A DNA stretch of 42,687 nucleotides from an uncultured Muribaculaceae bacterium (lineage in GTDB: Bacteria > Bacillota_I > Bacilli_A > RF39 > UBA660), in contig CAYTKH010000001.1 of NCBI GenBank assembly GCA_964438315.1, positions 1 to 42,687 on the forward strand, given 5' to 3'. This document shows, piece by piece, positions 1,791 through 42,687 of this stretch (positions within the stretch are counted from its first letter, which is position 1; each line of letters opens with the position of its first letter). The notes beneath the pieces were generated by a model. It was not told the origin of the DNA. It saw nothing but the letters and a program-made list of their open reading frames with translations, and did no database searches. A program made the position numbers and the translations under genes.

Positions 1791-2183
1791 TTAATTATTT
1801 AATACTATAGTACCTGATAATTTTAACCAACTACTCGTTCTCATTCTAATATAGACACCTCTTTCGCTAATTGTTTTTTCACCAGTACCATCGGTAATAT
1901 ATATTTGACAGTCTGAGAAGTCAGACCTTCCGTTATAAGTTATTACTATTAATAATCCATATGGATATGCACCACGAGGAAATCCCTCGATATTTTCATG
2001 ACCTACTCCAACTTGATAAATTTTAGCTGATTTAGGACCTAAATCACTATAAAGTTCATTCCAACTTTTATTAGAAAGATAAGGTAATACACCAAAATCT
2101 AATATTTCATTCAATGATTTTCTGTTATGAATTATACCTGTACTATCTATTTTTTTATCATTTCTTAATTCATATGTATTCAT
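1791..2183 (-). CDS. Receptor-binding 'knob' paralog C (tail fibre tip protein)
   Basis: N-terminal box KIDSTGIIHNRKSLNEIL is shared with 2208..2591 and 2618..3493. The C-terminus GVYIRMRTSSWLKLSGTIV resembles the end of 2618..3493. No SD is visible upstream. Confidence 0.5.
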   Translation of the reverse strand: MNTYELRNDKKIDSTGIIHNRKSLNEILDFGVLPYLSNKSWNELYSDLGPKSAKIYQVGVGHENIEGFPRGAYPYGLLIVITYNGRSDFSDCQIYITDGTGEKTISERGVYIRMRTSSWLKLSGTIVLNN

Positions 2184-2207
2184 TTTTTTGCTTTAAATAA
2201 TCGTTTA

Positions 2208-2591
2208 TCAAATATTTTCATATGGTATTTTTACCCAATTAGTCCATACGCCATCTATAAGTTTTCGTAAATAGATATTCATATCACTCATCTGTGAATA
2301 GAATTTTTGTAAACAATATCCAGCCTCTACTGGATAATTTACAACTTCCAAATATCCCCATTGCATTGCATTTTCTGTTCCATATAAAGGACCATTTATT
2401 AAATTATTACCATAATAAAATCCTGTGCTTTTTATATTATTTAAATCTTCACCAAAGATATTTTTACTATATCCATCTTTTCCACATATTGGAATACTAG
2501 AAACAACATCACTCAATAATTTTCTGTTATGAAATATATTTGTACTATCTATAAAACGATTATTCCTTAATTCAAAACTACTCTTTTGCAT
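2208..2591 (-). CDS. Receptor-binding 'knob' paralog B (tail fibre tip protein)
   Basis: N-terminal box FIDSTNIFHNRKLLSDVV. The C-terminal domain is divergent and ends WTNWVKIPYENI. No SD is visible upstream. Confidence 0.5.
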   Translation of the reverse strand: MQKSSFELRNNRFIDSTNIFHNRKLLSDVVSSIPICGKDGYSKNIFGEDLNNIKSTGFYYGNNLINGPLYGTENAMQWGYLEVVNYPVEAGYCLQKFYSQMSDMNIYLRKLIDGVWTNWVKIPYENI

Positions 2592-2617
2592 ATTTTTCTA
2601 TGTTAGTAGATGCTTAT

Positions 2618-3493
2618 TTATACTATTTTTGATACAAATGTACCAGATAATTTTAACCAATTATCATTCCTAATTCTCACATATATGTATCTGCCTTCAG
2701 TATTACCTATATTATCTTCAATATAAATTTGTGTGTTCGTATAATTATTATTTATACCTATATTTATTAATATTCCATAGTTATAACAATCTTTTGGAGC
2801 ACCAATCAAATTACCACCACCAATTGCAAATAATTTTATTCCATTATTATAATTATCAGAATATATTGAATCAAAATTTGCATTTGTAATATATTCATAA
2901 GTTTTAAGTAATTCACTTAACAATTTCCCATTGTGAATTATATTTGTACTATCAATATTTGTATATCCAAACTCTTTATATTCCACAAATGAAGTTGCCA
3001 CATTACCTTTTTCTAATTGAACTTTTCCACAATTTAGTGTATTTCCTATTGTTGAAATATCTGCCGAACCAATAATTATTGCTATTATATAGATTGACTG
3101 TTCAGCTTTAAAAACATATCCCTGTAAAGCATTATCTACTGATTTATAGGCTTCTCCATAAATTATATCTTTATATATAATAATTTTAGAATTAGATGTT
3201 ATAGTGTAGTTTTGACCAACTTCTAAATTGGAAATAGTATAATATACAAAACCACCACCACTAGCAGTTCTTGTTACTATCAATTCATTATTATTTATAC
3301 TAATACTTAAATTTTTACTTACAATAAGATTGTTATAATCAAATAAATTCTTACAAGTAATATCTTCAACTATTATACTTCCCATTGATTCTTGACCTTT
3401 AAAAACATCACTCAACAATTTCCTATTATGGGTAATACCTGTACTATCAATATAAGCATCTTTTTTAAAAATAAACGATTGTTTGTTAGCCAT
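2618..3493 (-). CDS. Receptor-binding protein paralog A (two-module tail fibre protein)
   Basis: Carries the conserved box twice: YIDSTGITHNRKLLSDVF at the N-terminus and NIDSTNIIHNGKLLSELL at aa 179-196. The C-terminal knob ends YIYVRIRNDNWLKLSGTFV. SD GAGGTGA lies 6 nt upstream. Confidence 0.6.
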   Translation of the reverse strand: MANKQSFIFKKDAYIDSTGITHNRKLLSDVFKGQESMGSIIVEDITCKNLFDYNNLIVSKNLSISINNNELIVTRTASGGGFVYYTISNLEVGQNYTITSNSKIIIYKDIIYGEAYKSVDNALQGYVFKAEQSIYIIAIIIGSADISTIGNTLNCGKVQLEKGNVATSFVEYKEFGYTNIDSTNIIHNGKLLSELLKTYEYITNANFDSIYSDNYNNGIKLFAIGGGNLIGAPKDCYNYGILINIGINNNYTNTQIYIEDNIGNTEGRYIYVRIRNDNWLKLSGTFVSKIV

Positions 3494-3641
3494 TGCTAAT
3501 CACCTCGTTTAATCTAACATTAAACCTCCAATCTCTTGAAGATTTATTAGAAGAGTATGTTTTAAACAGCATACCCTCCCTTCTTGTAAATTTGGCTTGT
3601 AAGCCCCCCCCCCCCGTGTGGGTTATTATATTATTTTTCAT
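3486..3641 (-). CDS. Unannotated 51-aa bridging ORF containing the G12 tract
   Basis: Hand-translated as MKNNIITHTGGGGLQAKFTRREGMLFKTYSSNKSSRDWRFNVRLNEVISNG. SD GGGAGGA lies 6 nt upstream. The start overlaps the upstream stop (TAATG) and the stop overlaps the downstream RBP start (ATGGCTAA). Confidence 0.4.
   Translation of the reverse strand: MKNNIITHTGGGGLQAKFTRREGMLFKTYSSNKSSRDWRFNVRLNEVISNG
3604..3615. repeat. Homopolymeric C12 (G12 on the coding minus strand)
   Basis: Read directly: aag-cccccccccccc-gtgtggg. It is conspicuous in otherwise AT-rich DNA. Confidence 0.95.
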
Positions 3642-3835
3642 TAATCTTCCTCCCAACTATCTACTAATTGAAATATTGAATTAAATATTTCTTCATCTGT
3701 TGCTACAGCATCATTTATTGCTGATTCTATATCATCTTGCATTTGATTTAAATTTTGTACATTCAACGGTGTTGACGTGTCTGGTAAATTTTTAAATTCC
3801 TTTTTAGTCATTTCAACTTCTTTTATTTTTGCCAT
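3641..3835 (-). CDS. Short tail-fibre N-terminal (anchor-like) protein
   Basis: LPDTSTPLNVQNLNQMQDDI resembles the N-terminal motif of Firmicutes phage tail-fibre proteins, but the ORF is only 64 aa. ATG at 3835 follows SD GAGGTG. Confidence 0.4.
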   Translation of the reverse strand: MAKIKEVEMTKKEFKNLPDTSTPLNVQNLNQMQDDIESAINDAVATDEEIFNSIFQLVDSWEED

Positions 3836-4043
3836 TATTTTCACCTCTTTCTTTTTTAATATAATTATTCATATTTTTTTCTAATTCCTTATTAGACATT
3901 AAATCAACTTCATTTAAAATATTCGATAGTATAATATGTAATAAACAAAGTGGTAAATTATTTCTTTGACATATTTCATTTATACTACTCACTATTTCAT
4001 TTTTCGATAATTCCATAGCTACATCTATTGTTTTATTTTCCAT
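3813..4043 (-). CDS. Hypothetical tail-region protein
   Basis: 76-aa ORF lying between the fibre genes, with 11- and 23-nt overlaps with its neighbours. Confidence 0.4.
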   Translation of the reverse strand: MENKTIDVAMELSKNEIVSSINEICQRNNLPLCLLHIILSNILNEVDLMSNKELEKNMNNYIKKERGENNGKNKRS

Positions 4044-6927
4044 TTAATAATTCCTCCAATTTTTCTATTTTATTTTGCATAACTTTACATATTGTAAGTA
4101 AATATTTATCAAATGTATCTGAATTATACTTTTTTACATAAATACATCCTTTAGGCATATTTTCTTTTGTATAATCCTCATAATTTGAAAAGTCTAATTC
4201 ACTTTTATTTACTTTTGCTACATCACCTTCAAAATCAAAAAATTTATTATAATTTTCTAACTTTTCAATTTCATCGATTATAAAACCATATTGATGTTTA
4301 TTTCTATAAAAGTTGTATTTATAATCATAGCTGTATATTTTAATATCTTTCAATAAATTATAAGCTTCAGTATAATTGGTAGAGTTAAATTCTTTTATAT
4401 TTTCTTTTACATTTTTTGATGAAGCACTACCATTGTCCGTTTTGATACGTGCATTATTTAAATTGTGACCTTTAGCCCAAATACTAGAATTTCCTATAGC
4501 CTCTAAAGAAATTCTAGAATGAATATAGATAGAAGCATTAGATGCTATTTCTACTCCTTCAGCACCATAAATATTAAGTTCATAATTAGTACCTTCTGCA
4601 TTATTAGGACCTTGATAAATAACAGACTTCAAACTACCAGGATTTTCCTGATTTGTACCTGTTAAAAAGTAAATTCCTCTAGTTGAGCCATTCGCTAAGT
4701 TGATGGCACTCATATATGGATGAGTTGTTTTTCTTGTACTAAAAAAACCTCCGCCATCTGTTGAAATTTGTGTTTTTCCATCAGATTCCACTGAGAAGTA
4801 TTTAGATATTTTAATACTACCACCCGTGATATTACCTAAGTTTGAACTAATACTTGATAGAGTTGTAATATTTAATTTTGAAGCATCTATAGATCTAGAA
4901 CTAATTCTTGCTGCACTTATGGTTCCGGATACAATTTGATTGGCACTAATATTTTGAGCTGATATATTTTCGACTGTAATGATATCTTGTGTAACTTTAC
5001 TTATTCCAACAGCTCCATCTTGAATTTTTGAGTTAGTAATAGCACTATCGCTTACTTTATCACTTGTAATAGATTTATCTACGATTTTATCAGCTGTAAT
5101 AACACCTGCTTGTATGTTTTCAGCTTTTATAGCACCTGCACTAATTTCATTTGATGTTATTGAACCTGTTGTTATTCTATTACCATTTATAGTTGTTGTA
5201 GTTCCATCGTTTATTAAACTTATTATTCCATTAATATCTATCTTACTTGCTAAAATTGATATTAATTCTGGACTTTGATTTATAGATGATATAACTTTAT
5301 TTTTGGCTACTCTAGAACTTATATTTTCTGCCATTATTTGAAATTGTGCATTAGTTTGTTCTGCTCCTGCTTTTTTATTAACTTCTAATTCTATTTCTTG
5401 CTTTGTTTGATTTATAACACTATTCATTTCAACTTTTAAGGCAAATTGAGTTGTAAAAGGATTAGAAGCTAGTAATCTAATTTGAAGATAACCACTTGTA
5501 TATCCTAATAATTCAACTTTGTAATTACCATCCGTCAAATGAATTCTTGGATATTCAAATTCAATTGTTTGTGGTGTACCTAATAATTCGTTTACTCCAT
5601 TTACACCTGTATGTTTTAATTTTTTATTGACATAGCATGTTTCACTAACATAACTTAAAATGAACTCATCATATGTATCTTCATCATAATAAAGTAAATC
5701 TATTGGTAATTCATAATCAAATATTTCACCAGTTGTTAAATTATTAAATCTTAAGGTTCTATCTTTTAAATACAGATTATCATTTGGATATAAAGTTTCA
5801 CTTGGATATATATATGAAATATCTTCACCTATAGGCCGAACAACTATTGTAATAGGTTCTGATTCATTTACATTATCTAGTGTTAGTTTTGCTATAGTTG
5901 ATTCACCACTTACTGTAATATCAGCTATATCACTTATTTTTGAATTTAAATTATCCACAGTTTGTGTTATTTTAGCTATTTTCTCATTTTGATTATTGGT
6001 TTGACTTACTATATTTGTTATTTGTTGTGAAGTAATTCCTATTTGAGCTAAATATTCTTCTTTTGTTGTATATTTATTTGAAGCTTCTGATTTTACACCA
6101 TCAATATACGTATTTAACTCAGTCGATGTTATATAAGTTTGTGATACAGTTAAAGTTATCTCATCTATTGCCTTTTTAATTTCTGAAAGCATTTTTCTAT
6201 CTATTTCAGTTATACTAGGTAGTATGTAAACAGTATGGTACTGTTCTTGTTCAATTTTAAAAGCTTCAACATAATCATCTCTTTTTTGCCAGTGTTCATC
6301 ATTAAATACACTTGAATTTTCAACAGCTATTTTGGTTTCTGTTCCAAACCATAAATCACCTTTTTTATAATCAGACGGATTTTTTAAAAAGATTTTTTTA
6401 TAACCATCAATAACATCAAATAGAGAACTAGGAACACTTCTTTTTACCCATTTATAAGTAACGGGGTTAGTAGTTTGTTTAACATACTGAAATGTATCTG
6501 ATAAATCATGCCATAAATCACTTATATGCTTTTCTTTATCTAAATCAGTGGGCCAATCTATACTAGGATCTCTAGCACAATAAAATGATTCTATTAAACC
6601 ATCTTCTTGCTCAACATACTCTAGTTTATTAACATCATATATAGCCTTTAATGAATTACTTATATCTTCAGTATTTACGGCCAATTGCCAATCGGACATA
6701 GAAAAAGAACCAGTTAATCGGTTCTTTATGCACTTATATATTTTACCATCTAATACTAATAAACTATTTACATAATAAGGTGGATTAGGTGGTGCATTGT
6801 AATTTTTAGGAAGAATTTTTATTTGTTCATTATTTAATTCTGTTTCTTCCTTTAAAATTTTCTTTAAATACCCCAAAGTAACATTATCATTATCGTATTT
6901 TGGATTTCTATTATTCAATTTAAACAC
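4033..6927 (-). CDS. Tail fibre/spike with a C-terminal S74 intramolecular chaperone (autoproteolytic) domain
   Basis: S74 signature near the C-terminus: GSASSKNVKENIKEF...YSYDYKYN...HQYGFIIDEIEKL. There is also a long run of I/V-x-S/A repeats (SITSNEISAGAIKAENIQAGVITADKI...). Confidence 0.7.
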   Translation of the reverse strand: MFKLNNRNPKYDNDNVTLGYLKKILKEETELNNEQIKILPKNYNAPPNPPYYVNSLLVLDGKIYKCIKNRLTGSFSMSDWQLAVNTEDISNSLKAIYDVNKLEYVEQEDGLIESFYCARDPSIDWPTDLDKEKHISDLWHDLSDTFQYVKQTTNPVTYKWVKRSVPSSLFDVIDGYKKIFLKNPSDYKKGDLWFGTETKIAVENSSVFNDEHWQKRDDYVEAFKIEQEQYHTVYILPSITEIDRKMLSEIKKAIDEITLTVSQTYITSTELNTYIDGVKSEASNKYTTKEEYLAQIGITSQQITNIVSQTNNQNEKIAKITQTVDNLNSKISDIADITVSGESTIAKLTLDNVNESEPITIVVRPIGEDISYIYPSETLYPNDNLYLKDRTLRFNNLTTGEIFDYELPIDLLYYDEDTYDEFILSYVSETCYVNKKLKHTGVNGVNELLGTPQTIEFEYPRIHLTDGNYKVELLGYTSGYLQIRLLASNPFTTQFALKVEMNSVINQTKQEIELEVNKKAGAEQTNAQFQIMAENISSRVAKNKVISSINQSPELISILASKIDINGIISLINDGTTTTINGNRITTGSITSNEISAGAIKAENIQAGVITADKIVDKSITSDKVSDSAITNSKIQDGAVGISKVTQDIITVENISAQNISANQIVSGTISAARISSRSIDASKLNITTLSSISSNLGNITGGSIKISKYFSVESDGKTQISTDGGGFFSTRKTTHPYMSAINLANGSTRGIYFLTGTNQENPGSLKSVIYQGPNNAEGTNYELNIYGAEGVEIASNASIYIHSRISLEAIGNSSIWAKGHNLNNARIKTDNGSASSKNVKENIKEFNSTNYTEAYNLLKDIKIYSYDYKYNFYRNKHQYGFIIDEIEKLENYNKFFDFEGDVAKVNKSELDFSNYEDYTKENMPKGCIYVKKYNSDTFDKYLLTICKVMQNKIEKLEELLNGK

Positions 6928-6930
6928 CTC

Positions 6931-9900
6931 CTATTTATATATTTTGTTGTCTTTTATTGTAAATCCTAATTCTTTTAGCTTCTCACTTTTTTCATACTTA
7001 GTAATATTTGATTCTAATATATATTTAATTAAGTAATCATCATAATTTGAAAATCCTATTTTTTTTGCAAATGTAGATTTTTCATATTTACTCATATTTA
7101 AACTATTAATATATTTTAAAATGTTATTATCATATTTTTTGTAACTTTTATATGTCATCTTAGCAAGAATTGCCTTTTGAGAAATATTTAGGTTCAAACC
7201 ATTTATATAATTTAGAACCTTATTCTTTTTAGAATCAGAAATAACACCTTTACCGTCATAATCACTTTCAAACTCTTGTGAATTATATTTAATAAATTCT
7301 CTAATAGGTATTTTCATCGCTATTATATCATTTACTTTTGATTCATCAGAATAATATTTAGAATATAAATGTGCAAGCTGTTCATCACTTAAGTTTGAAT
7401 TTAAACACAAATCTGCTATTTCCTTATGTTTATCAGAAGATTTTTTTACTTTTTCTGACTTTATAGATGACATCTTGACTTTTAAATTATAATATTCATT
7501 CTTTTGACTTTCTGACATATTTAATTTATCTAAGTTATCTTTATCGGATTTATCAATAACATTTTTTAGCATTATATTTTTTTGATTAACAGTTATATCT
7601 TCTAATTTATTTATATAATCAACCTTATCTATATTTTTTTTGCCTGCTTTAGTTAATCCTTGATTATAATTTCTATATTCTGTACTATTCATCTGTAAAT
7701 CTTTCATTTCTGATATTTTTGTTGATTTTATTGTTTTATAGCCACTTTCTATATAATCTTGAGCCTCTTTACTAGAATATTGACCAAATAATAAAGCTTT
7801 ACCAACACCTATAGGACTTTTATCTGCTGTAAATCTTAGATTACCACTATCTGTATAAGAACCTGCTGTAGGCAATTTTTTACTGTACATTTTAGCACCC
7901 TCTATTGTCTTTTTAAGTTGACCTCCGCCAAAAGGCATTGCTATATAAAATATAGGTTTAGATAGTTCTTTATATAAAGTTTTTCTTGCTTTATCAGAAG
8001 TAAAAGCATCGGGAATATTTTTTAATACATCATCCGTATTTGGAATTGCTGCTTGTATAGGTAACCTACCTCCTCCGAATACTCCCCCTACAAATGGTAG
8101 TTCCCCAGCTAAATCTTTTGATACTTCAGATAATTTATCACCAATAGACAAATTATCATTAGTGGCTGTTTTAATAGAATCATAAGCTATATCTATTGGA
8201 CTAAATGCACTATCTCTTCCAGTAAGTGATTTACTAAATTTATTATACAACCATGCCCCTACAAATATTTTTAAAAAAGCTGATACAAGTTTATGTTTTG
8301 CCTCGTTGCTTAAATTTCTTGGTAAGTCTTTTAACATATATCCAAACTGATTATTTACTTCTAATTGAAAGGCCGTAAGTAATTTAGTAAAAGCACTTTG
8401 CTTATTAAAAATCGTTGGCATACTTCCTTTATCACGTCCACCCATAATACTTTTAGCAAAGTTATTAGCATTATTGATAGCTTGTAATTCTGTCATTCCT
8501 TTTTCTATGTTATCGTAGTATTTACCACGTACGATAACATTTGCAGTAATTGAATCTACAGCTTCAAATATAACACTAGCTTTATCATTTATCGTATCTA
8601 GTTTAGTTTTATATAATCTATCTGCTGATTTCGTCCTATTTATTAAAAAAGTTGAGCAATTATCAAAACCATCGTTATGGAATTGATTTGCTATACTGTC
8701 TTTTATAGCTTTGGCCATATTTTTTGTTGATACTTCTCCCCAAGCCTGTGTTATTGGTATAAAATTAGTTAAAGCGGAAGAAATATTAAATCCAACCATA
8801 TTAGCACTGACTCTAGATTGAATATTCTTCATAATTGTATAGCTATTACGTCCAAATAGATGTTCCATGCCACGATCACCAACATCTTTTTTATTAGCAA
8901 GAGAATCAGTGTAATCCCTTAATTCGGTAACAAAATTAGGAAGAGGATTATTAATTTTTGCAAATTCTAAATCTATTAGAGCTTGTTTTTGTTCCATATC
9001 GTATTCGGGATTATTAGAAATCTTTTCGATTGTATCCCGTATAGATTTATCAGTATATTGTGTTCTAATTACTGTTTCTAATGCTCTAAGCTTTTGAATA
9101 TCCTCTGTATGAAAAATTAAATCTGCAGCACCTCTAATATAATTATCAAAACCTTTTAAAGCATCATAATCAGTTATCTTTCCCATTCTCCTTTGGGAAT
9201 TTTTAAAGTATGTTTTTCCTGGTTTAAATAAATCAGTAGTACCAGCTATATCTGTAGGTAATTCTTGATTATTAACTTTGAATCCTAATTTTTCAGCTAA
9301 TTTAGAAAACTTTGTTTGTCGTGTTTCTTCAATAAAATGGGGAAAATAACCTTTTCTATAGTCTATTTCTGGATATCCCTGTTCTTTTAAAATAGCATTT
9401 ATTTTTGGTAGTAATTCGTCATATATTTTTCTGAATTCTTCTACTGAAGTAGATAATTTATTATAATTTAATTTATTCTTTTCAATATATTCATCCACTT
9501 GTAAACCAGTTAATAAAGTCTCAGAATTATATTTATATTCACCCAACATTTGTACTGCTATAGATTCCCTTTGATTTAAATTTAATTTTTTAACTCTTTC
9601 ATTATACGAAGTTATAAATTGTTCAATTTTAGCATTATTATCAGTTATTGGTTTAAAATATGTATTATACATTGATTCTGCCTCATGTTTAGGCATCATA
9701 TCATATAGATTTCTTTCCATTGTATTAATCTTATATTTCAATCCACTAGTCTTATCGTTCCAATCTACCATATTTTCGGTCAATTTATAAGCAAGATCAA
9801 TATATTGTTGTTTTTTTGTTATTCGTTGTTCTTTGATTTTAAATTCCTTTGACTGCATTGTTTTATTTTTATTTTCTAAAAATTTTATTCTTCTATCATA

Positions 9901-12900
9901 ATCTAATTTTCTATTTTTAAGTTGGTTATTAAGATTAGATATTTGAATATTTAGTTGAGTAGCTATTTTAGTATCTTGATTTGATTTAGACTTTAGTAGT
10001 TCCTCTTTTAATTTAATTTTTTCTTTCATACGTTTTTCTAATTCGTTTTTTTCTTGTTTTAATCTACCTATAGCATTAGAATTGTTTTCTATTTTTTGTT
10101 TATTAATTTCCTTAATAGAATTTTTATTTACTGCTTCAATATTATTTATACTCTTTTGAATATTAGTTAAATCACTATATTTTGGTAATACTTTACCTTT
10201 TAATTCCCTCATGTCTGTTCTAGTCCCTGTTGCTTTATAGTTTTTTTCTAAGTATTCTTGCCATGTGGTATTATTTTGAGAATATTTAGCATCAACTTTA
10301 GCATATTGACCTTGTGTAGGGTCTATCCAAGCTATATCTTCAATATTTACTTCTTTTGAATAAACTTTACCTGTTCCACTATAACTTTCTGCTTCCATTT
10401 TAGATGGACTTACAAATATTCCTTGTTCTATTGGATATGATGAATAAACCGTTATTTTGCCTGTTTTTATTGCATTCTCTATATCTTTTTTCGATAAATC
10501 CGGATTAAATTCATCATAATCTGACCAATTATCATCTTGTAAAGTTTCTTCTAGTGTCTTAATATCATCTACACTTCTTATCCAGGTATGAAGTTCATCA
10601 TTTGCTGGATTTGATTTTTGTATAATTTCATTTTGTTTTTCTTTCAAATTAAAAGAACTATTATCTAATTTTTGTGTATTATTTTGATTATTTTGCATAG
10701 AATATTTAGGTAATGTACCACTCTTGACATTAGTATTAGATTGTGATATATTACCACTAGGTTGGTTGCTTGAACCATCAAATCTAGCTGAACTCATTTC
10801 TGAGTTGGAAGCTACGGATGGCAAGTTGACCAATTTTTTTTGTGGTTTTAGATTTAATATATCATATAAGTATTTTTTTTCATTTGCATCATTTCTTATT
10901 AAAACTGTACCAGTATATACTTTTTCTTGCCCATTGTGATTGAATGAAAAAGTAGTATCATATTTATAAAATCCATACTTAGCATTTACTTTATGACTTT
11001 CATGTTTATATGGCTCCCATTTCCTATTAGTTGAATTTTCTACAATTTCTTTTAAATTAGTAACAGCCCTACCCTTTGCTAATTTTTTTGTTGTTGGTAA
11101 TGATTGAGCTGATTTAGAATAGGCATATTCTCCAGGTAAATCTTCACCTAGATATACTTTTTGACCACTTTCAATAATAGTATAAACATCTCCAATATGG
11201 TTTTCTAAATATTCTTTAATTGTTTGATTTATAGATTTTCCATTATTGTTTTCAAATATATTTTCATTTATTTTTATTCTATTTAATGTTCCATCATTAT
11301 TATAAACTTCTGAAAATTTTGTATTTTTTAGATTACTAATAGACTGTTCAGTTGTAGTATTCCTATAAGCTGTTTCCCATTTATTTTTTAAATCTCTAAT
11401 AAATAAACCTTCTTTAGAATTTCCAGTTATTTTATTAGCAATCTCTATAATTTTATTATAGATTTTTTTAAAAACACTAGGTTCTTTCACAGATAAGTTA
11501 TTAATAAATTCCTGATTCCCAAACAATTGTCCTGAAATATCTGCAATAACTTCACTTGATACATCATTTGTTCCATATGTTTGTTTTAAAGCTTCTAAAG
11601 ATTGATTAAAATCACTGTTTTTACTAGCATAATCTAATATTAATTTTTTCATATTATCTGTTTCAACAGCATGTGTTATCTCATGAGTTAATAAAAATTC
11701 ACCAGCACGTGATGAATTTGGATTTAATCTTATTTCTACTTCGTTATTTTCTAATGTTTTTATTTGAGCATTAACCGATTTATTTTGACTATTTACAATA
11801 GTATCATCAAATAATACATTATAATTTTTATCTTTAATTATCTTATCTATTGTATTTAATAAATCAATCGTCTCTTTTTTATTATTAAAATATTGTGATG
11901 CACTCTTTCTTAGAATATTTGTTTTTTCGTTAGCTGTTGGTAAATATGAATATTTACTATTAATGTTATCACCACTATATTTAATGTCATTTAAGCCATT
12001 TTGAGGCACTACTTTGTTTTTTTGTATATTTATATCAGTTTGTACATTTTCGTTTAAAATTGACTGGTTATTTGCAATATTTTGATTATATACAGCACGT
12101 GGTAATGTTTGCTTAATTGCACCTTTTATATTAGATGCATTTATTGGTGCTTCTAATATACCACCTGTTATAGCTCCTGATATAAAACTTTCTAAAACTG
12201 CATTACCATCTATTTTTTCTCCTTTAGAATAGGTTGCATTTTTTAAATAAGGATTTAGAAGTTCTGATAAAGCTTCTTCACTACCTTCACCAATTATTTT
12301 ATAACCTGCATTTAAAACTTCTTTAACTACTTGATTTGATACTTTATTTAACCCTTTTTCTGCTAGAGTATCTAAATTTAATTTATTAAGAAAATTAGCA
12401 GTTTTAGATAACTTAGTATTTTTAGCAACAGATGCAACCTTTTGAACACCTGGTATTCCTCCAGTTAACCATTCTGTAGCACTCTCTACTGCAGCATTAC
12501 CTACACCATATAAATTGGCTTGTCCTCTATTAGCACCATCGTTATAAGCTTCTTCAACACCACTACCATATGAATTTGCTCCCATTGATAACATAGCCCC
12601 CGCATTACCTACACCAGTATATCCTAAAGCTATACTAGGTAACATGTTTCCAATTCCTTCGGTTATAGCACCTGCAAAATTATTACTTTTAATTAAAGAA
12701 TTATCATCGATTGTTTGTTGTAATGTTTTACCATTTGGTAGCACTTTATTATATCCTAGTGTTTCATTAAATAAATGTTGTTTTCCGTTATCTTGGATAA
12801 TTTCTTTTGCAATATTTTGATAGTCATTTAATTTTGATTGGTCTTTACTCCATGGTGTTTCACCTGTTGCAATCCACATTCCAGGATTATATTTAGAAGA

Positions 12901-13215
12901 ACCTAATTGAATTAATGGATCTACAATCATATGCTCTAATCCACCTACTACACCTTTTAATGCTTGTGATTTTAATCCTACTAATGTACCTGGTACCTTT
13001 AATATATTCTTTCCTATTGTTTCTAAATTTGATTTAAAATCATTATCTTTACTATAAACAACTTTACCAGGCGAAATAGTAGTTTTGTTTATTAATTCAA
13101 TATCACTAGAAGTAGCATTATTATTTCCTAATTTATTTTTAGCATTAGTTAAATTTATGATTCTTTCTTCTTGTTCTTCCCACTCTCTACCATTCCATAT
13201 TTTCAAATGAATCAC
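6931..13215 (-). CDS. Giant 2094-aa polyvalent virion protein (ejection or tape-measure-like), with a zincin HExxH motif
   Basis: Gly/Ala-rich hydrophobic segments at aa ~180-360. LLTHEITHAVE at aa 508-518 (nt ~11671..11685). A K/E-rich coiled coil near aa 1000-1130. TMP-like hydrophobic repeats in the C-terminal third. The start is GTG at 13215, or possibly TTG at 13206. Confidence 0.55.
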   Translation of the reverse strand: MIHLKIWNGREWEEQEERIINLTNAKNKLGNNNATSSDIELINKTTISPGKVVYSKDNDFKSNLETIGKNILKVPGTLVGLKSQALKGVVGGLEHMIVDPLIQLGSSKYNPGMWIATGETPWSKDQSKLNDYQNIAKEIIQDNGKQHLFNETLGYNKVLPNGKTLQQTIDDNSLIKSNNFAGAITEGIGNMLPSIALGYTGVGNAGAMLSMGANSYGSGVEEAYNDGANRGQANLYGVGNAAVESATEWLTGGIPGVQKVASVAKNTKLSKTANFLNKLNLDTLAEKGLNKVSNQVVKEVLNAGYKIIGEGSEEALSELLNPYLKNATYSKGEKIDGNAVLESFISGAITGGILEAPINASNIKGAIKQTLPRAVYNQNIANNQSILNENVQTDINIQKNKVVPQNGLNDIKYSGDNINSKYSYLPTANEKTNILRKSASQYFNNKKETIDLLNTIDKIIKDKNYNVLFDDTIVNSQNKSVNAQIKTLENNEVEIRLNPNSSRAGEFLLTHEITHAVETDNMKKLILDYASKNSDFNQSLEALKQTYGTNDVSSEVIADISGQLFGNQEFINNLSVKEPSVFKKIYNKIIEIANKITGNSKEGLFIRDLKNKWETAYRNTTTEQSISNLKNTKFSEVYNNDGTLNRIKINENIFENNNGKSINQTIKEYLENHIGDVYTIIESGQKVYLGEDLPGEYAYSKSAQSLPTTKKLAKGRAVTNLKEIVENSTNRKWEPYKHESHKVNAKYGFYKYDTTFSFNHNGQEKVYTGTVLIRNDANEKKYLYDILNLKPQKKLVNLPSVASNSEMSSARFDGSSNQPSGNISQSNTNVKSGTLPKYSMQNNQNNTQKLDNSSFNLKEKQNEIIQKSNPANDELHTWIRSVDDIKTLEETLQDDNWSDYDEFNPDLSKKDIENAIKTGKITVYSSYPIEQGIFVSPSKMEAESYSGTGKVYSKEVNIEDIAWIDPTQGQYAKVDAKYSQNNTTWQEYLEKNYKATGTRTDMRELKGKVLPKYSDLTNIQKSINNIEAVNKNSIKEINKQKIENNSNAIGRLKQEKNELEKRMKEKIKLKEELLKSKSNQDTKIATQLNIQISNLNNQLKNRKLDYDRRIKFLENKNKTMQSKEFKIKEQRITKKQQYIDLAYKLTENMVDWNDKTSGLKYKINTMERNLYDMMPKHEAESMYNTYFKPITDNNAKIEQFITSYNERVKKLNLNQRESIAVQMLGEYKYNSETLLTGLQVDEYIEKNKLNYNKLSTSVEEFRKIYDELLPKINAILKEQGYPEIDYRKGYFPHFIEETRQTKFSKLAEKLGFKVNNQELPTDIAGTTDLFKPGKTYFKNSQRRMGKITDYDALKGFDNYIRGAADLIFHTEDIQKLRALETVIRTQYTDKSIRDTIEKISNNPEYDMEQKQALIDLEFAKINNPLPNFVTELRDYTDSLANKKDVGDRGMEHLFGRNSYTIMKNIQSRVSANMVGFNISSALTNFIPITQAWGEVSTKNMAKAIKDSIANQFHNDGFDNCSTFLINRTKSADRLYKTKLDTINDKASVIFEAVDSITANVIVRGKYYDNIEKGMTELQAINNANNFAKSIMGGRDKGSMPTIFNKQSAFTKLLTAFQLEVNNQFGYMLKDLPRNLSNEAKHKLVSAFLKIFVGAWLYNKFSKSLTGRDSAFSPIDIAYDSIKTATNDNLSIGDKLSEVSKDLAGELPFVGGVFGGGRLPIQAAIPNTDDVLKNIPDAFTSDKARKTLYKELSKPIFYIAMPFGGGQLKKTIEGAKMYSKKLPTAGSYTDSGNLRFTADKSPIGVGKALLFGQYSSKEAQDYIESGYKTIKSTKISEMKDLQMNSTEYRNYNQGLTKAGKKNIDKVDYINKLEDITVNQKNIMLKNVIDKSDKDNLDKLNMSESQKNEYYNLKVKMSSIKSEKVKKSSDKHKEIADLCLNSNLSDEQLAHLYSKYYSDESKVNDIIAMKIPIREFIKYNSQEFESDYDGKGVISDSKKNKVLNYINGLNLNISQKAILAKMTYKSYKKYDNNILKYINSLNMSKYEKSTFAKKIGFSNYDDYLIKYILESNITKYEKSEKLKELGFTIKDNKIYK

Positions 13216-38446: not shown

Positions 38447-38570
38447 CATACAAATATATCATATTGAAAAAAGACCTCGCACAGCAAATACAAGGTCTAA
38501 TGAAAACTCAAACATAAGGCCACCAACCTATGAAACAAAAATAGACAAGCTATAATTGTATGGAGCTTTC
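38411..38570 (-). ncRNA. Candidate minus-strand sRNA upstream of the integrase gene
   Basis: Extended -10 TGcTATAAT on the minus strand (38578-38586). A first, weak terminator at 38466-38498 (AGACCT..AGGTCT plus U6) and a second at 38411-38446. The only internal ORF is 18 codons long. Confidence 0.3.
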
Positions 38571-38616
38571 GCATATAATTATAGCACAAAAACAAAAAAA
38601 AAGGAAGTGCTATAAA

Positions 38617-40014
38617 ATGAATAAAACAAAAGAAAATATAATAAAGGCTGTACTTTATATAAGAGTATCCACTGAAGAACAAGTAAGACATGGATATTCA
38701 TTAGATTCACAAAAAAATAGATTATTAGAATACTGTAAAGAAAAAGGATATCAAGTTATTGATATATATGTGGATGAGGGAAAGACTGCACGTTCTAAAA
38801 TAAAGAATCGTACAGAATTATTAAGACTTATAGAAGATGCTAAAGAGAAAAAATTTGATAGGATTGTTTTTTGGAAATTAGATAGATGGTTTAGAAATAT
38901 TGCTGATTATTATAAAGTTCAAGAAATATTGGAAAATAATAAGATTGATTGGGAATGTAGTGATGAAGAGTATAATACAACAACCTCAAATGGGAGACTA
39001 CATCTTAATATAAAATTATCTATCGCACAAAATGAATCGGATCAAACAGGAGATAGAATTAGATTTAATTTTGATAATATGGTTAAAAACGGTAAAGCTA
39101 TAACAGGGTCACATGCTGTTCCTTTAGGATTTATGGTTGCGGGTGAAGAAAGAAATAAAAAAGTAGTAAAAAATCCTGAAACAGAACAAATAGCAATTGA
39201 TATGTTGGATTATATAAGAAAATGCGGTAGCATTCGTGAAACACTATTTCATATAAATGAAAAATATAATTTAAACATATGTTATGATAGTATGCGACAT
39301 TATTTAAGAAATACCAAATATTATGGTTGTTATCGTGGAAATGAAAATTATTGTGATTCATACATAACAAAACAAGAATTTGATGAAATACAATCATTAA
39401 TTAAATGTAATGTAAAAATGAATAAGGTACATGACTACATTTTTAGTGGTTTAATTAAGTGTCCAATTTGTCACCGAAACATGGCTGGATTTCGCTCTAA
39501 AAATACACGTTCACATGGAAAAAAGGTAAATTTTATTTATCCTAGCTACCGTTGTAATTATGCATTTAATGCAAAAAAATGTACAAATAAAAAAAGTATC
39601 GTAGAAAATACATTAGAGAAATATTTAATAAATAATATTCAAGAAGAAATGAAAAAATACATTATTAATTTAGAAAAGATTGGAGATACAACTGATAAGG
39701 AAAATGTTGTTATTGATAAGGATAAAATAAAAGCAAAATTAAATCGACTTACTGATTTATATATCGATGGTAAAATACTACGTGAAAAATATGATTTAGA
39801 ATTTGAAAAATTAAACAGTCAACTAAATGATACTAGTGTAAAAGTTAAACAAGAAAAACGAGATTTAAATATATACAAAGAATTCATTGATTCTAATTTA
39901 TTGGACCTATATAATAAGTTAAATAATAAATCTAAAAGAATGTTTTGGGCAAAATACATTGACTTTATAGAAAAAATAGGGGATAATGAATACAAGATTT
40001 ACTTTAAAAATTAA
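38617..40014 (+). CDS. int: Large serine recombinase (phage integrase)
   Basis: N-terminal resolvase domain AVLYIRVSTEEQVRHGYSLDSQ (catalytic Ser). Recombinase domain, zinc-ribbon (CPICHRN...YRCNYAFNAKKC) and a coiled coil. ATG at 38617 follows SD AAGGAAG. Confidence 0.9.
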   Translation: MNKTKENIIKAVLYIRVSTEEQVRHGYSLDSQKNRLLEYCKEKGYQVIDIYVDEGKTARSKIKNRTELLRLIEDAKEKKFDRIVFWKLDRWFRNIADYYKVQEILENNKIDWECSDEEYNTTTSNGRLHLNIKLSIAQNESDQTGDRIRFNFDNMVKNGKAITGSHAVPLGFMVAGEERNKKVVKNPETEQIAIDMLDYIRKCGSIRETLFHINEKYNLNICYDSMRHYLRNTKYYGCYRGNENYCDSYITKQEFDEIQSLIKCNVKMNKVHDYIFSGLIKCPICHRNMAGFRSKNTRSHGKKVNFIYPSYRCNYAFNAKKCTNKKSIVENTLEKYLINNIQEEMKKYIINLEKIGDTTDKENVVIDKDKIKAKLNRLTDLYIDGKILREKYDLEFEKLNSQLNDTSVKVKQEKRDLNIYKEFIDSNLLDLYNKLNNKSKRMFWAKYIDFIEKIGDNEYKIYFKN

Positions 40015-41329: not shown

Positions 41330-42151
41330 TCAACATAATTCAGAATAGATACTTTCTATTTCACTTAATTTTTCAAACTGTTCCTGGGATGCATTTCTAT
41401 TCATCATACTTTTCTTAATAATATCTATTCTTGAACCATAAGTAAGACAAGCATATTCATTACTTTTATTTCTGAATTCTTGTAATAAATTCAAATAATC
41501 ATCACAAACGGGAATAACTTTAAATTTATTACCAATTGGTACAACATAATTTACTTTTACACCAATTGATAAACATTTTGAGATGAAATTTGGTAATAAT
41601 GCATAACATTTATTGTGAGCTTCAATGTTTGATAATTTAGCATTAATACTTCCTGATATTTCTTTTTCGTATCGTTCTCTTGTTGCAAGTAAACTTGATA
41701 AATTACCGACTACAACAACATTTATAACAACATCACAATTATGGGGAATCGTTTTTATCAGTTCCAATAAACTATAGTCAATTGGTGCCTTTTCTCTTAA
41801 AACAGAATAACCATTTTGGATTGCATAAGCAAAAAGTTCATCACCCCATAAATGTGCATCAAAATTTGTAAGTTTCACATAGTCCGTTGGATATTTTTCT
41901 AATATTTCATTAGAATACTTACTAAATCTACGATAATCATCGGAGTTTATGACTATATACTTCGACAAACCTGACCCCTCTATAAATGTTGTTTTCCCAC
42001 AACCAGGTTGACCAACAACAAACATAATTGATGGATATTTTTCAGCAATCTTACCTACAAATAAATCTTTTTTTAGCAATTCTAAAACTTTATTATGTTC
42101 TTCTTGAGATAATTTATATTTTTCAATTAATTCATTTATCTGTTTTTCCAT
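41330..42151 (-). CDS. Zeta-toxin-family P-loop kinase
   Basis: MFVVGQPGCGKTTF (Walker A) followed by VINSDDYRRF, matching the zeta pattern GGQPG.GKT ... D.D.F(R/K). ATG at 42151 follows SD GGAGGG. Confidence 0.55.
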   Translation of the reverse strand: MEKQINELIEKYKLSQEEHNKVLELLKKDLFVGKIAEKYPSIMFVVGQPGCGKTTFIEGSGLSKYIVINSDDYRRFSKYSNEILEKYPTDYVKLTNFDAHLWGDELFAYAIQNGYSVLREKAPIDYSLLELIKTIPHNCDVVINVVVVGNLSSLLATRERYEKEISGSINAKLSNIEAHNKCYALLPNFISKCLSIGVKVNYVVPIGNKFKVIPVCDDYLNLLQEFRNKSNEYACLTYGSRIDIIKKSMMNRNASQEQFEKLSEIESIYSELC

Positions 42152-42195
42152 CCTTTTCCCTCCAAAATGATTACTATTTTTTAATTTGCATTTAA

Positions 42196-42687
42196 TCAAA
42201 TACCAATTTTATTATTTTTCTTGGCTTCGATATTCCATTTTATGACACCATAAATATTTATTAATAAATAACCAATAGATACAAGTAACATCATTATTGA
42301 TCCATTTCCACCATTTATTACAGTTATAATCCAAATTATTAAATCTATAATATTATTTATTAACCATAACCACCACGATTCTTTAAATCTTAATATCATT
42401 AAGATTACACCACAAAGATTTATACAATTTGAAGTAGCATCCATAAACGCTAATCTTTGATTAGGTATTAATGTTAAAAATAATACTACCTATTATACAA
42501 GATAAAGTTATTATAATAGAATTTTTTTTAGTAAATTCTCGTGCCTTAACATTCTTATCATCATTCAAATTTTTATTCCAAGTAATAAACCCATTAACTT
42601 GAAGTGGAGAAAAAATAAATATATAAAAGAAAAAGATACCAAATAAATTATTTTTATAAGCAACATATCCCATTAATAAATTATTTA
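42196..42687 (-). pseudogene. pnuC: PnuC-family (nicotinamide riboside-type) transporter gene, frameshifted and 5'-truncated by the window end
   Basis: The C-terminal part (FKESWWLWLINNIIDLIIW...YGVIKW) is typical of PnuC. The two halves (42461..42673+ and 42196..42444) are in different frames, and the frames overlap near the A5 run at 42476-42480. Confidence 0.6.

Follow-up and report, generated by a model that had tools for sequence, protein, structure and literature searches.

Introduction

The closest described counterpart of the locus analysed here is found in Fletchervirus, a group of Campylobacter phages in which polyG tracts of 7-11 nucleotides (nt) lying in the genes of receptor-binding proteins (RBPs) generate host-range diversity, as related in the portion of PMC12633550 that cites Sorensen 2021; the same article reports contingency loci for phages T2 and T4 (PMC12633550). 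Phage-encoded contingency loci have so far been shown for these Fletchervirus RBPs and, recently, for T-even phages, and no example of such a switch in a temperate phage of Gram-positive bacteria was found in the literature searched, which was a limited collection. In the present work, we analyse a run of twelve G residues (G12) located on the minus strand, upstream of the gene of a 291-residue RBP (RBP291), in 42,687 nt of contig CAYTKH010000001.1 (the whole of this stretch being called hereafter the window), deposited in GenBank assembly GCA_964438315.1 under the name of an uncultured Muribaculaceae bacterium (GTDB lineage Bacteria; Bacillota_I; Bacilli_A; RF39; UBA660). A preliminary description of this DNA had presented the tract as a candidate phase-variable host-range switch. 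The reading that we favour, and that we hold only tentatively, is that the tract is real and slippage-prone, that the 51-codon open reading frame (ORF) in which it lies is translated by restart, and that the tract length would act as a leaky translational modulator of RBP291 and not as an ON/OFF switch.

This reading draws on mechanisms that are familiar from other systems. Long G/C runs are established as hypermutable. Coupling of two genes by termination and reinitiation is exemplified by the UGAUG junction of trpE-trpD and by the coat-to-replicase and coat-to-lysis couplings of the RNA phages. Other phages diversify their host range by means of invertible tail-fibre segments (Gin in Mu, Cin in P1) or of diversity-generating retroelements (BPP-1).

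Results

The G12 tract and the small ORF that contains it

On the minus strand, which is the coding strand of this region, the sequence reads ACCCACAC-G12-CTTACAAGCC, the G run spanning 3615..3604 (C12 at 3604-3615 on the plus strand). No other G/C homopolymer of more than 5 nt exists in the window, whose guanine-plus-cytosine (GC) content is 26.6% and for which base composition predicts about 1e-5 to 1e-7 such runs; the preliminary description had likewise seen no other long G/C homopolymer. The length of the tract is taken as assembled and is uncertain by ±1. At 12 nt, the run is above the length of about 7-8 nt from which polyG/C repeats of contingency loci are unstable and, judged by what is generally known of long G/C runs, it is very likely to be intrinsically slippage-prone. 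It occupies codons 10-13 of the small ORF, a position typical for translational phase variation, where a change of ±1 alters the reading frame and the three phases end at three distinct stops. GGG is the rarest Gly codon of the phage (22 of 462 Gly codons, 4.8%), and two successive GGG codons, i.e. an in-frame GGGGGG, occur in no other phage gene. The two kinds of codon that make up the tract, GGG and GGC, are the phage's two rarest Gly codons (4.8% and 7.6%). A location of the tract in a promoter spacer or a terminator was considered and rejected, no promoter-like or terminator-like site overlapping 3480-3660 on the minus strand.

The small ORF (3641..3486, minus strand; product MKNNIITHTGGGGLQAKF...EVISNG, 51 amino acids (aa)) is tied to both of its neighbours. 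Its start overlaps the stop of the fibre-anchor ORF (3835/3844..3641) in a TAATG at 3643-3639, and its stop overlaps the RBP start (3493) in ATGGCTAA at 3493-3486, both junctions showing the overlapping stop and start of coupled gene pairs. Every detail of this anatomy that we checked, including the Shine-Dalgarno sequence (SD) GGGAGGA 6 nt upstream of the start, proved to be as the preliminary description had given it. The tail genes around it all lie tightly together or overlap. In shuffled sequences, the frame that follows the tract reaches the RBP ATG without a stop in about 3% of the cases for a given frame and in about 10% for any frame. The ORF is also called by a gene caller, and in the protein collection it is a singleton that comes from this same contig.

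In-silico editing of the tract reproduced all the stops that had been predicted for G11, G12 and G13. In the G9/G12/G15 phase, translation would end at 3488-3486, beyond the RBP AUG, while the stop of the G13/G10 phase is at 3564-3562 and that of the G11/G14 phase at 3511-3509; two of the three frames are open for at least 30 codons past the tract. The idea of one frameshifted fibre gene that another tract length would restore was rejected: the anchor and the RBP share a frame, but four stops interrupt it before the tract and two after. No slippery heptamer was found at the junctions.

The codon statistics of the small ORF are intermediate. Its log-odds score is -0.02 per codon, as compared with a mean of 0.75 and a 1st percentile of 0.24 for 51-codon windows of real genes and with 0.33-0.84 for all seven neighbouring small genes, and it stands well above both out-of-frame distributions (-1.2 and -1.6). 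The product has no match in Pfam or PHROG, and neither a transmembrane segment nor a motif nor any other feature could be recognised in it; two weak phmmer matches were discarded as repeat proteins that score via a repeated 10-mer. From its sequence, such a profile would suit a leader or bridging ORF that is translated, or a chimeric ORF of recent origin, better than it would suit a conserved protein.

Structure of the leader and of the RBP start

Downstream of the tract, the transcript is predicted to fold into three hairpins (Table 1), which are all significant against shuffles (z = -3.6 to -4.25) and each of which buries an SD-like purine run. In the same in-silico folding, none of the other starts among 36 minus-strand genes is as structured as the initiation region of the RBP, whose stability is modest in itself (-12.4 kcal/mol; P(unpaired) 0.35), and the spacer between the anchor and RBP genes is the second most stable of 213 genome-wide windows of 160 nt. 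The stops of the three phases map onto these hairpins in a graded manner: that of G13/G10 falls in the loop of hairpin A, that of G11/G14 coincides with the first three bases of hairpin C, and that of G12 lies past the RBP AUG.

In the frame of the RBP, a mini-ORF of three codons (MLD) runs from an ATG at 3520 to a TAA at 3511-3509 behind a good SD of its own (GGAGG, 3529-3525); its stop, at the foot of the RBP hairpin, is the same as the stop of the G11 phase. A known RNA element in the leader was also sought and rejected, Rfam giving no family at its gathering threshold in the whole window and only chance-level matches in 3300-3900.

Table 1. Features of the locus, with positions in the window
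Feature	Position	Strand	Description
G12 homopolymer	3604..3615	-	codons 10-13 of the small ORF (GGG GGG GGG GGC), after ACG
51-codon bridging ORF	3486..3641	-	fills the gap between the anchor and RBP genes
SD of the small ORF, GGGAGGA	3648..3654	-	within the C-terminal W-E-E codons of the anchor; 6 nt before ATG 3641
Hairpin A	3549..3580	-	-12.7 kcal/mol, z = -4.2; buries GGGAGGG and an AUG
Hairpin B	3521..3546	-	-9.8 kcal/mol, z = -4.25; buries GGAGG (3529-3525)
Hairpin C	3472..3511	-	-11.7 kcal/mol, z = -3.6; RBP SD in the stem, AUG (3493-3491) in the apical loop
Stand-alone fibre anchor	3641..3835	-	64 aa from ATG 3835; 67 aa from GTG 3844
RBP gene	2618..3493	-	291 aa; linker motif, CBM-like beta-sandwich, second linker motif, C-terminal head domain
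ORF127	2208..2591	-	linker and head paralogue; no SD; 26 nt past the RBP stop; codon score 0.60
ORF130	1791..2183	-	head paralogue; no SD; 24 nt past the ORF127 stop; codon score 0.73

The fibre genes and their relatives

The genes that surround the spacer had been labelled a fibre-anchor-like ORF, an RBP gene and SD-less paralogues, and these labels hold in view of matches to a fibre family and to PHROG 2012, of the structural model and of the paralogy of the head domains. Residues 12-45 of the anchor (EFKNLPDTSTPLNVQNLN...) match the N-termini (residues 1-45) of fused fibre proteins of ~290 aa, and a second match of the anchor is to the N-terminal part of PHROG 2012, a minor tail protein; the RBP aligns with the same ~290-aa family from residue ~31 (GQESMGSIIVEDITCKNLFD). 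The model of the RBP (predicted local distance difference test (pLDDT) 72) contains a beta-sandwich at residues ~45-175, whose fold resembles those of the carbohydrate-binding modules (CBMs) CBM35, CBM4, CBM61 and CBM29, and ORF130 is 41% identical to RBP residues 180-287. The locus thus has the FKNLPDTSTP anchor, the CBM-like domain, the head domain and the position downstream of an S74-chaperone tail protein that mark a modular fibre, with the modules distributed over separate ORFs; the family with this anchor is an uncharacterised one of Bacilli and Clostridia prophages. Lacking an SD, ORF127 and ORF130 plausibly depend on upstream translation. None of the three genes RBP291, ORF127 and ORF130 contains a G/C run longer than 5 nt. 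The RBP head, ORF127 and ORF130 may represent three heads that serve as alternatives and compete for a single docking site, or they may be silent cassettes. A linker motif of ~22 aa, F.L.N..IDST.I.HN.KLL, occurs four times within 1791-3835, its DNA copies being direct repeats that are only 65-77% identical; ORF127 and ORF130 each have it in front of the head domain. Recombination of cassettes between the four copies was considered and set aside in view of this orientation and divergence.

The locus was compared with 25 related loci, which total 146.6 kb at 25-31% GC and in which every G/C run is of 5 nt or less. The five closest relatives have counterparts of the adjacent 964-aa protein that are 46-57% identical to it, and in all five the genes encode, in order, a protein of ~985 aa, one of ~73 aa, a single fused fibre of ~290 aa, and then the holins and lysin, with neither a spacer nor extra cassettes. 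A closer relative was sought through the 964-aa protein and this route was abandoned, the best matches being 54-57% identical and all having the fused fibre without the spacer. Set against these fused fibres, the window shows a split into anchor, 148-nt spacer and RBP, and the parts without a counterpart are anchor residues 44-67 (24 codons), the spacer itself and RBP residues 1-26. From this comparison, the split architecture of the window is apparently derived from a single fibre gene of ~290 aa.

Splitting is seen elsewhere in the family. In five more distant loci (L007, L008, L009, L014 and L015), a stand-alone anchor of 71 aa ends in ...EEWEIIE*, its W-E codons provide an SD (TGGGAG), and a TAATG starts the RBP gene directly; in L008 (4001-4716), for example, the TAATG-coupled RBP behind the 71-aa anchor has 166 aa. 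Such sequences point to split anchor/RBP pairs as a natural architecture. Since the SD of the W-E codons and the TAATG drive the RBP itself in these relatives, the small ORF of the window uses a restart that elsewhere belongs to the RBP. In another locus, L026, the head domain is encoded by a gene apart (143 aa) that is preceded by its own SD; taken together with the stand-alone anchors found elsewhere, this means that fibre splitting at module borders recurs in the family.

Beyond these loci, blastn of 2500-4100 against 50,697 phage records gave no match, scans of genome-contig and viral-contig collections with RBP291 returned nothing, and the spacer has no significant similarity to any other part of the window or to 21 related loci. 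No cultured-phage relative of this phage was found.

Phage context

The phage is temperate and its host is Gram-positive; it carries a large serine recombinase, an S24 repressor and an endolysin with Amidase_2 and CW_7 domains. Metagenomic contigs supplied the nearest tail modules, one of which belongs to a metagenome-assembled genome named 'Bacilli bacterium'.

Two further observations concern other parts of the window. The tail module includes a 2094-aa protein (6931-13215, minus strand), flanked by a 359-aa protein on one side and by the 964-aa S74-chaperone fibre on the other, that is unusually large for this position; its homologues in L001, L022 and L023 (53% identity) carry a match to PF18819 (MuF_C). 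At the end of the record, beside the serine recombinase (38560-40014), a zeta-toxin family gene (289 aa) and two preceding small ORFs (82 and 70 aa) occupy 41330-42673 on the minus strand and are probably a prophage-borne toxin-antitoxin module of the epsilon/zeta type.

Discussion

The model that we tentatively prefer places the origin of the small ORF in the event by which a single fibre gene would have been split into anchor and RBP genes, the small ORF taking for itself the SD and TAATG restart that the RBP uses in other split-type relatives. In the G12 phase, ribosomes arriving from the anchor gene would be carried through a 110-nt leader with three hairpins and released atop the RBP start, at ATGGCTAA, thereby melting the hairpin C that buries the SD and AUG of the RBP. 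The length of the tract would in this way tune the translation of RBP291 and, via reinitiation, that of the SD-less ORF127 and ORF130. Lengths of 9, 12 or 15 would give full coupling; with 11 or 14, release would occur at the foot of the RBP hairpin and coupling would probably be kept; with 10 or 13, ribosomes would be released 70 nt upstream, leaving two hairpins intact, and the RBP, relying on its own SD within a hairpin, would reach its lowest output.

Several observations weigh against this modulator model. A strong SD that belongs to the RBP itself, GAGGTGAT at 3506-3499 (minus strand), lies 5 nt from its ATG, so that an OFF state would be leaky and uncoupled expression is likely. The predicted stabilities of the hairpins are modest (-10 to -13 kcal/mol), and neither the predicted RNA structure nor the accessibility of the RBP start changes with tract length from G0 to G15; as the fold is independent of the length, any effect must act via the reading frame. 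In the G11 phase ribosomes would be released at the base of the RBP hairpin, with 16 nt between them and the RBP ATG, and with a stop adjoining the RBP start at most one phase in three would be 'uncoupled'; ribosomal slippage on three successive rare GGG codons could moreover blur the phases. The codon usage of the small ORF is atypical, lying below the 1st percentile of real-gene windows, and an exhaustive phmmer search with its product against 1.84 billion representative proteins returned the self-match only. Each protein of the locus forms a singleton cluster that comes from a single contig, the RBP is missing from the position index that was consulted for sibling copies, a scan of IMG/VR for exact spacer patterns allowing for a variable tract found no copy, and the comparison of the tract in related prophages, which had been suggested as a check, turned up no relative with the tract or the spacer.

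The claims made earlier for the locus are affected unequally by these results. In favour of coupling are the structured RBP start, the three hairpins, a G13 stop that falls in the loop of hairpin A and leaves B and C intact, and a small ORF that bridges the gap exactly, as chance would achieve in about 3% of cases; the RBP's own SD and the proximity of the G11 stop to the RBP start speak against it. The wording 'host-range switch' goes beyond the evidence, while 'possible leaky translational modulator' is a wording that the sequence supports. A stronger version would make the locus an indirect contingency locus, in which a hypermutable tract in a leader ORF sets the point of termination and hence the output of the RBP and of the two SD-less head proteins, lysogens releasing bursts of mixed fibre composition; we consider this version unlikely.

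Nearly as likely as the leaky modulator, and possible in our judgement if somewhat doubtful, is that the arrangement is a neutral by-product of recombination. The spacer and its G run would be the scar of the splitting of the fibre gene, or of the insertion of an RBP cassette that brought along a leader and an SD; the small ORF would be an accidental or barely selected read-through of that leader, and the tract would slip while the RBP runs from its own SD in any phase. The strong SD of the RBP speaks for such an explanation, as do several features of the locus: the closest relatives all have one fused ~290-aa fibre and no spacer, the homology breaks exactly at the spacer (with anchor residues 44-67 and RBP residues 1-26 unmatched in the fused fibres), no match to the spacer was found anywhere else, the orphan small ORF has codon statistics that are intermediate and non-native, and the locus, a singleton, gives no sign of a long-term maintenance of the tract. 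What the scar explains less well is the tract itself, as a G12 cannot come from point mutation at 27% GC and would be expected to decay quickly unless recent or selected. The small ORF, moreover, overlaps both gene borders, which chance would achieve in ~3% of cases, the assembled length is precisely the in-frame one, and the unusual structure around the RBP start looks like regulation and not like junk.

It is improbable that the target of phase variation is the small ORF itself, encoding a functional basic protein of 51 aa (an assembly factor or a moron product, for example) whose own ON/OFF state would matter, with any effect on the RBP being secondary. The good SD and start, the location of the tract in the 5' part, the call by the gene caller and the low probability of an ORF open by chance would all suit such a protein; its lack of any homologue among the 1.84 billion representatives and of any Pfam or PHROG match, the absence of a recognisable transmembrane segment or motif, and a codon usage unlike that of all the neighbouring genes, small ones included, do not. 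We attach the same low probability to an error of sequencing or assembly, by which the length would be miscalled or no clean homopolymer would exist, voiding the frame arguments. The record is a single contig whose platform is unstated, long G/C homopolymers are error-prone on all platforms, and the homology to the relatives is interrupted at the tract. The poly-G runs produced by two-colour chemistry are, however, at least as long as the assembly k-mer and are found at contig ends, whereas this one has 12 nt and lies in the interior of a syntenic tail module, between coherent genes on both flanks, in a record without terminal overlap and without Ns; with the called length, moreover, the ORF ends on the RBP start, for which the prior is 1 in 3. 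A poly-G assembly hub was accordingly judged an unlikely origin.

Least probable of all is an action at the level of the RNA or the ribosome (ribosomal frameshifting or pausing, slippage of the RNA polymerase, or a G-quadruplex that the tract would form together with the GGGAGGG downstream of it) that would fix a read-through ratio without heritable switching: three codons of the rarest Gly type (4.8%) form a perfectly slippery run that is also SD-like, tRNAs can re-pair with it perfectly in every frame, at least 30 codons are open beyond it in two of the three frames and GGGAGGG follows 26 nt downstream, but there is no stimulatory element in a canonical position, the predicted fold leaves the tract mostly unpaired and is indifferent to its length, RNA-polymerase slippage in bacteria is best documented for A/T runs, and the proposal is purely speculative.

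The readings differ in what they would imply. If the tract varies and tunes the RBP, phage contingency loci would be extended both to temperate phages of Gram-positive gut bacteria and to a new logic, in which a hypermutable leader ORF governs the coupling to a set of alternative receptor-binding modules; this would bear on host-range hedging by prophages and on phage engineering. If the indirect contingency locus were true, it would be the first host-recognition switch driven by a simple sequence repeat outside the Campylobacter phages and the first to act via coupling and not through breakage of the RBP frame. If the locus is only a recombination scar, it would still be a clear example of modular fibres split and re-joined at a conserved linker motif.

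As Fletchervirus appears in the part of the source cited above, the two systems have in common a long G run in the host-recognition module of an AT-rich phage genome, length changes that shift a reading frame, and the idea of a mixed progeny with different receptor binding. The defining point of Fletchervirus membership, a polyG within the RBP coding sequence, is absent here: its tracts, in the same account, lie inside the RBP ORFs and switch them directly, whereas the present one precedes the RBP ATG by 111 nt and belongs to another ORF, an orphan, in a different frame. Nor is there homology between the RBPs, RBP291 having no match among the PHROG families and none by tblastn in the 50,697 phage records. 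Fletchervirus phages are lytic myoviruses, and their Gram-negative host has polyG contingency loci of its own, whereas the phage studied here is temperate and siphovirus-like, with a low-GC Gram-positive (Bacilli-like) host, and any effect in it would be indirect and leaky. With the contingency loci of Haemophilus, Neisseria and Campylobacter, the locus shares a repeat above the instability threshold, early in an ORF, with three predicted translational outcomes; those loci are defined by length polymorphism within a population and by a phenotype, and in the present one the ORF affected is apparently a leader and not the effector gene. The T2/T4 loci differ in being short runs (6 nt or more) inside ordinary genes.

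The invertible segments of Mu and P1 and the retroelement of BPP-1 resemble the locus in residing in a tail-fibre or RBP module and in the presence, side by side, of several alternative C-terminal receptor-binding domains (here the RBP head, ORF127 and ORF130). They differ from it in their machinery, as the window has no adjoining invertase and no inverted repeats at the cassette borders, where the repeats are direct and diverged, and neither a reverse transcriptase nor a template repeat. The likeness to classical termination-reinitiation coupling resides in the TAATG and ATGGCTAA overlaps, in a downstream SD and AUG predicted in silico to lie in a hairpin, of modest stability, that an upstream ribosome would melt, and in following ORFs without an SD. 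The downstream gene of a classical pair has no efficient SD of its own, whereas RBP291 also has a strong independent one (GAGGTGAT), and a further difference is the feature from which this analysis started, a presumably hypermutable tract in the upstream ORF that would set the site of termination, which is not part of the classical examples.

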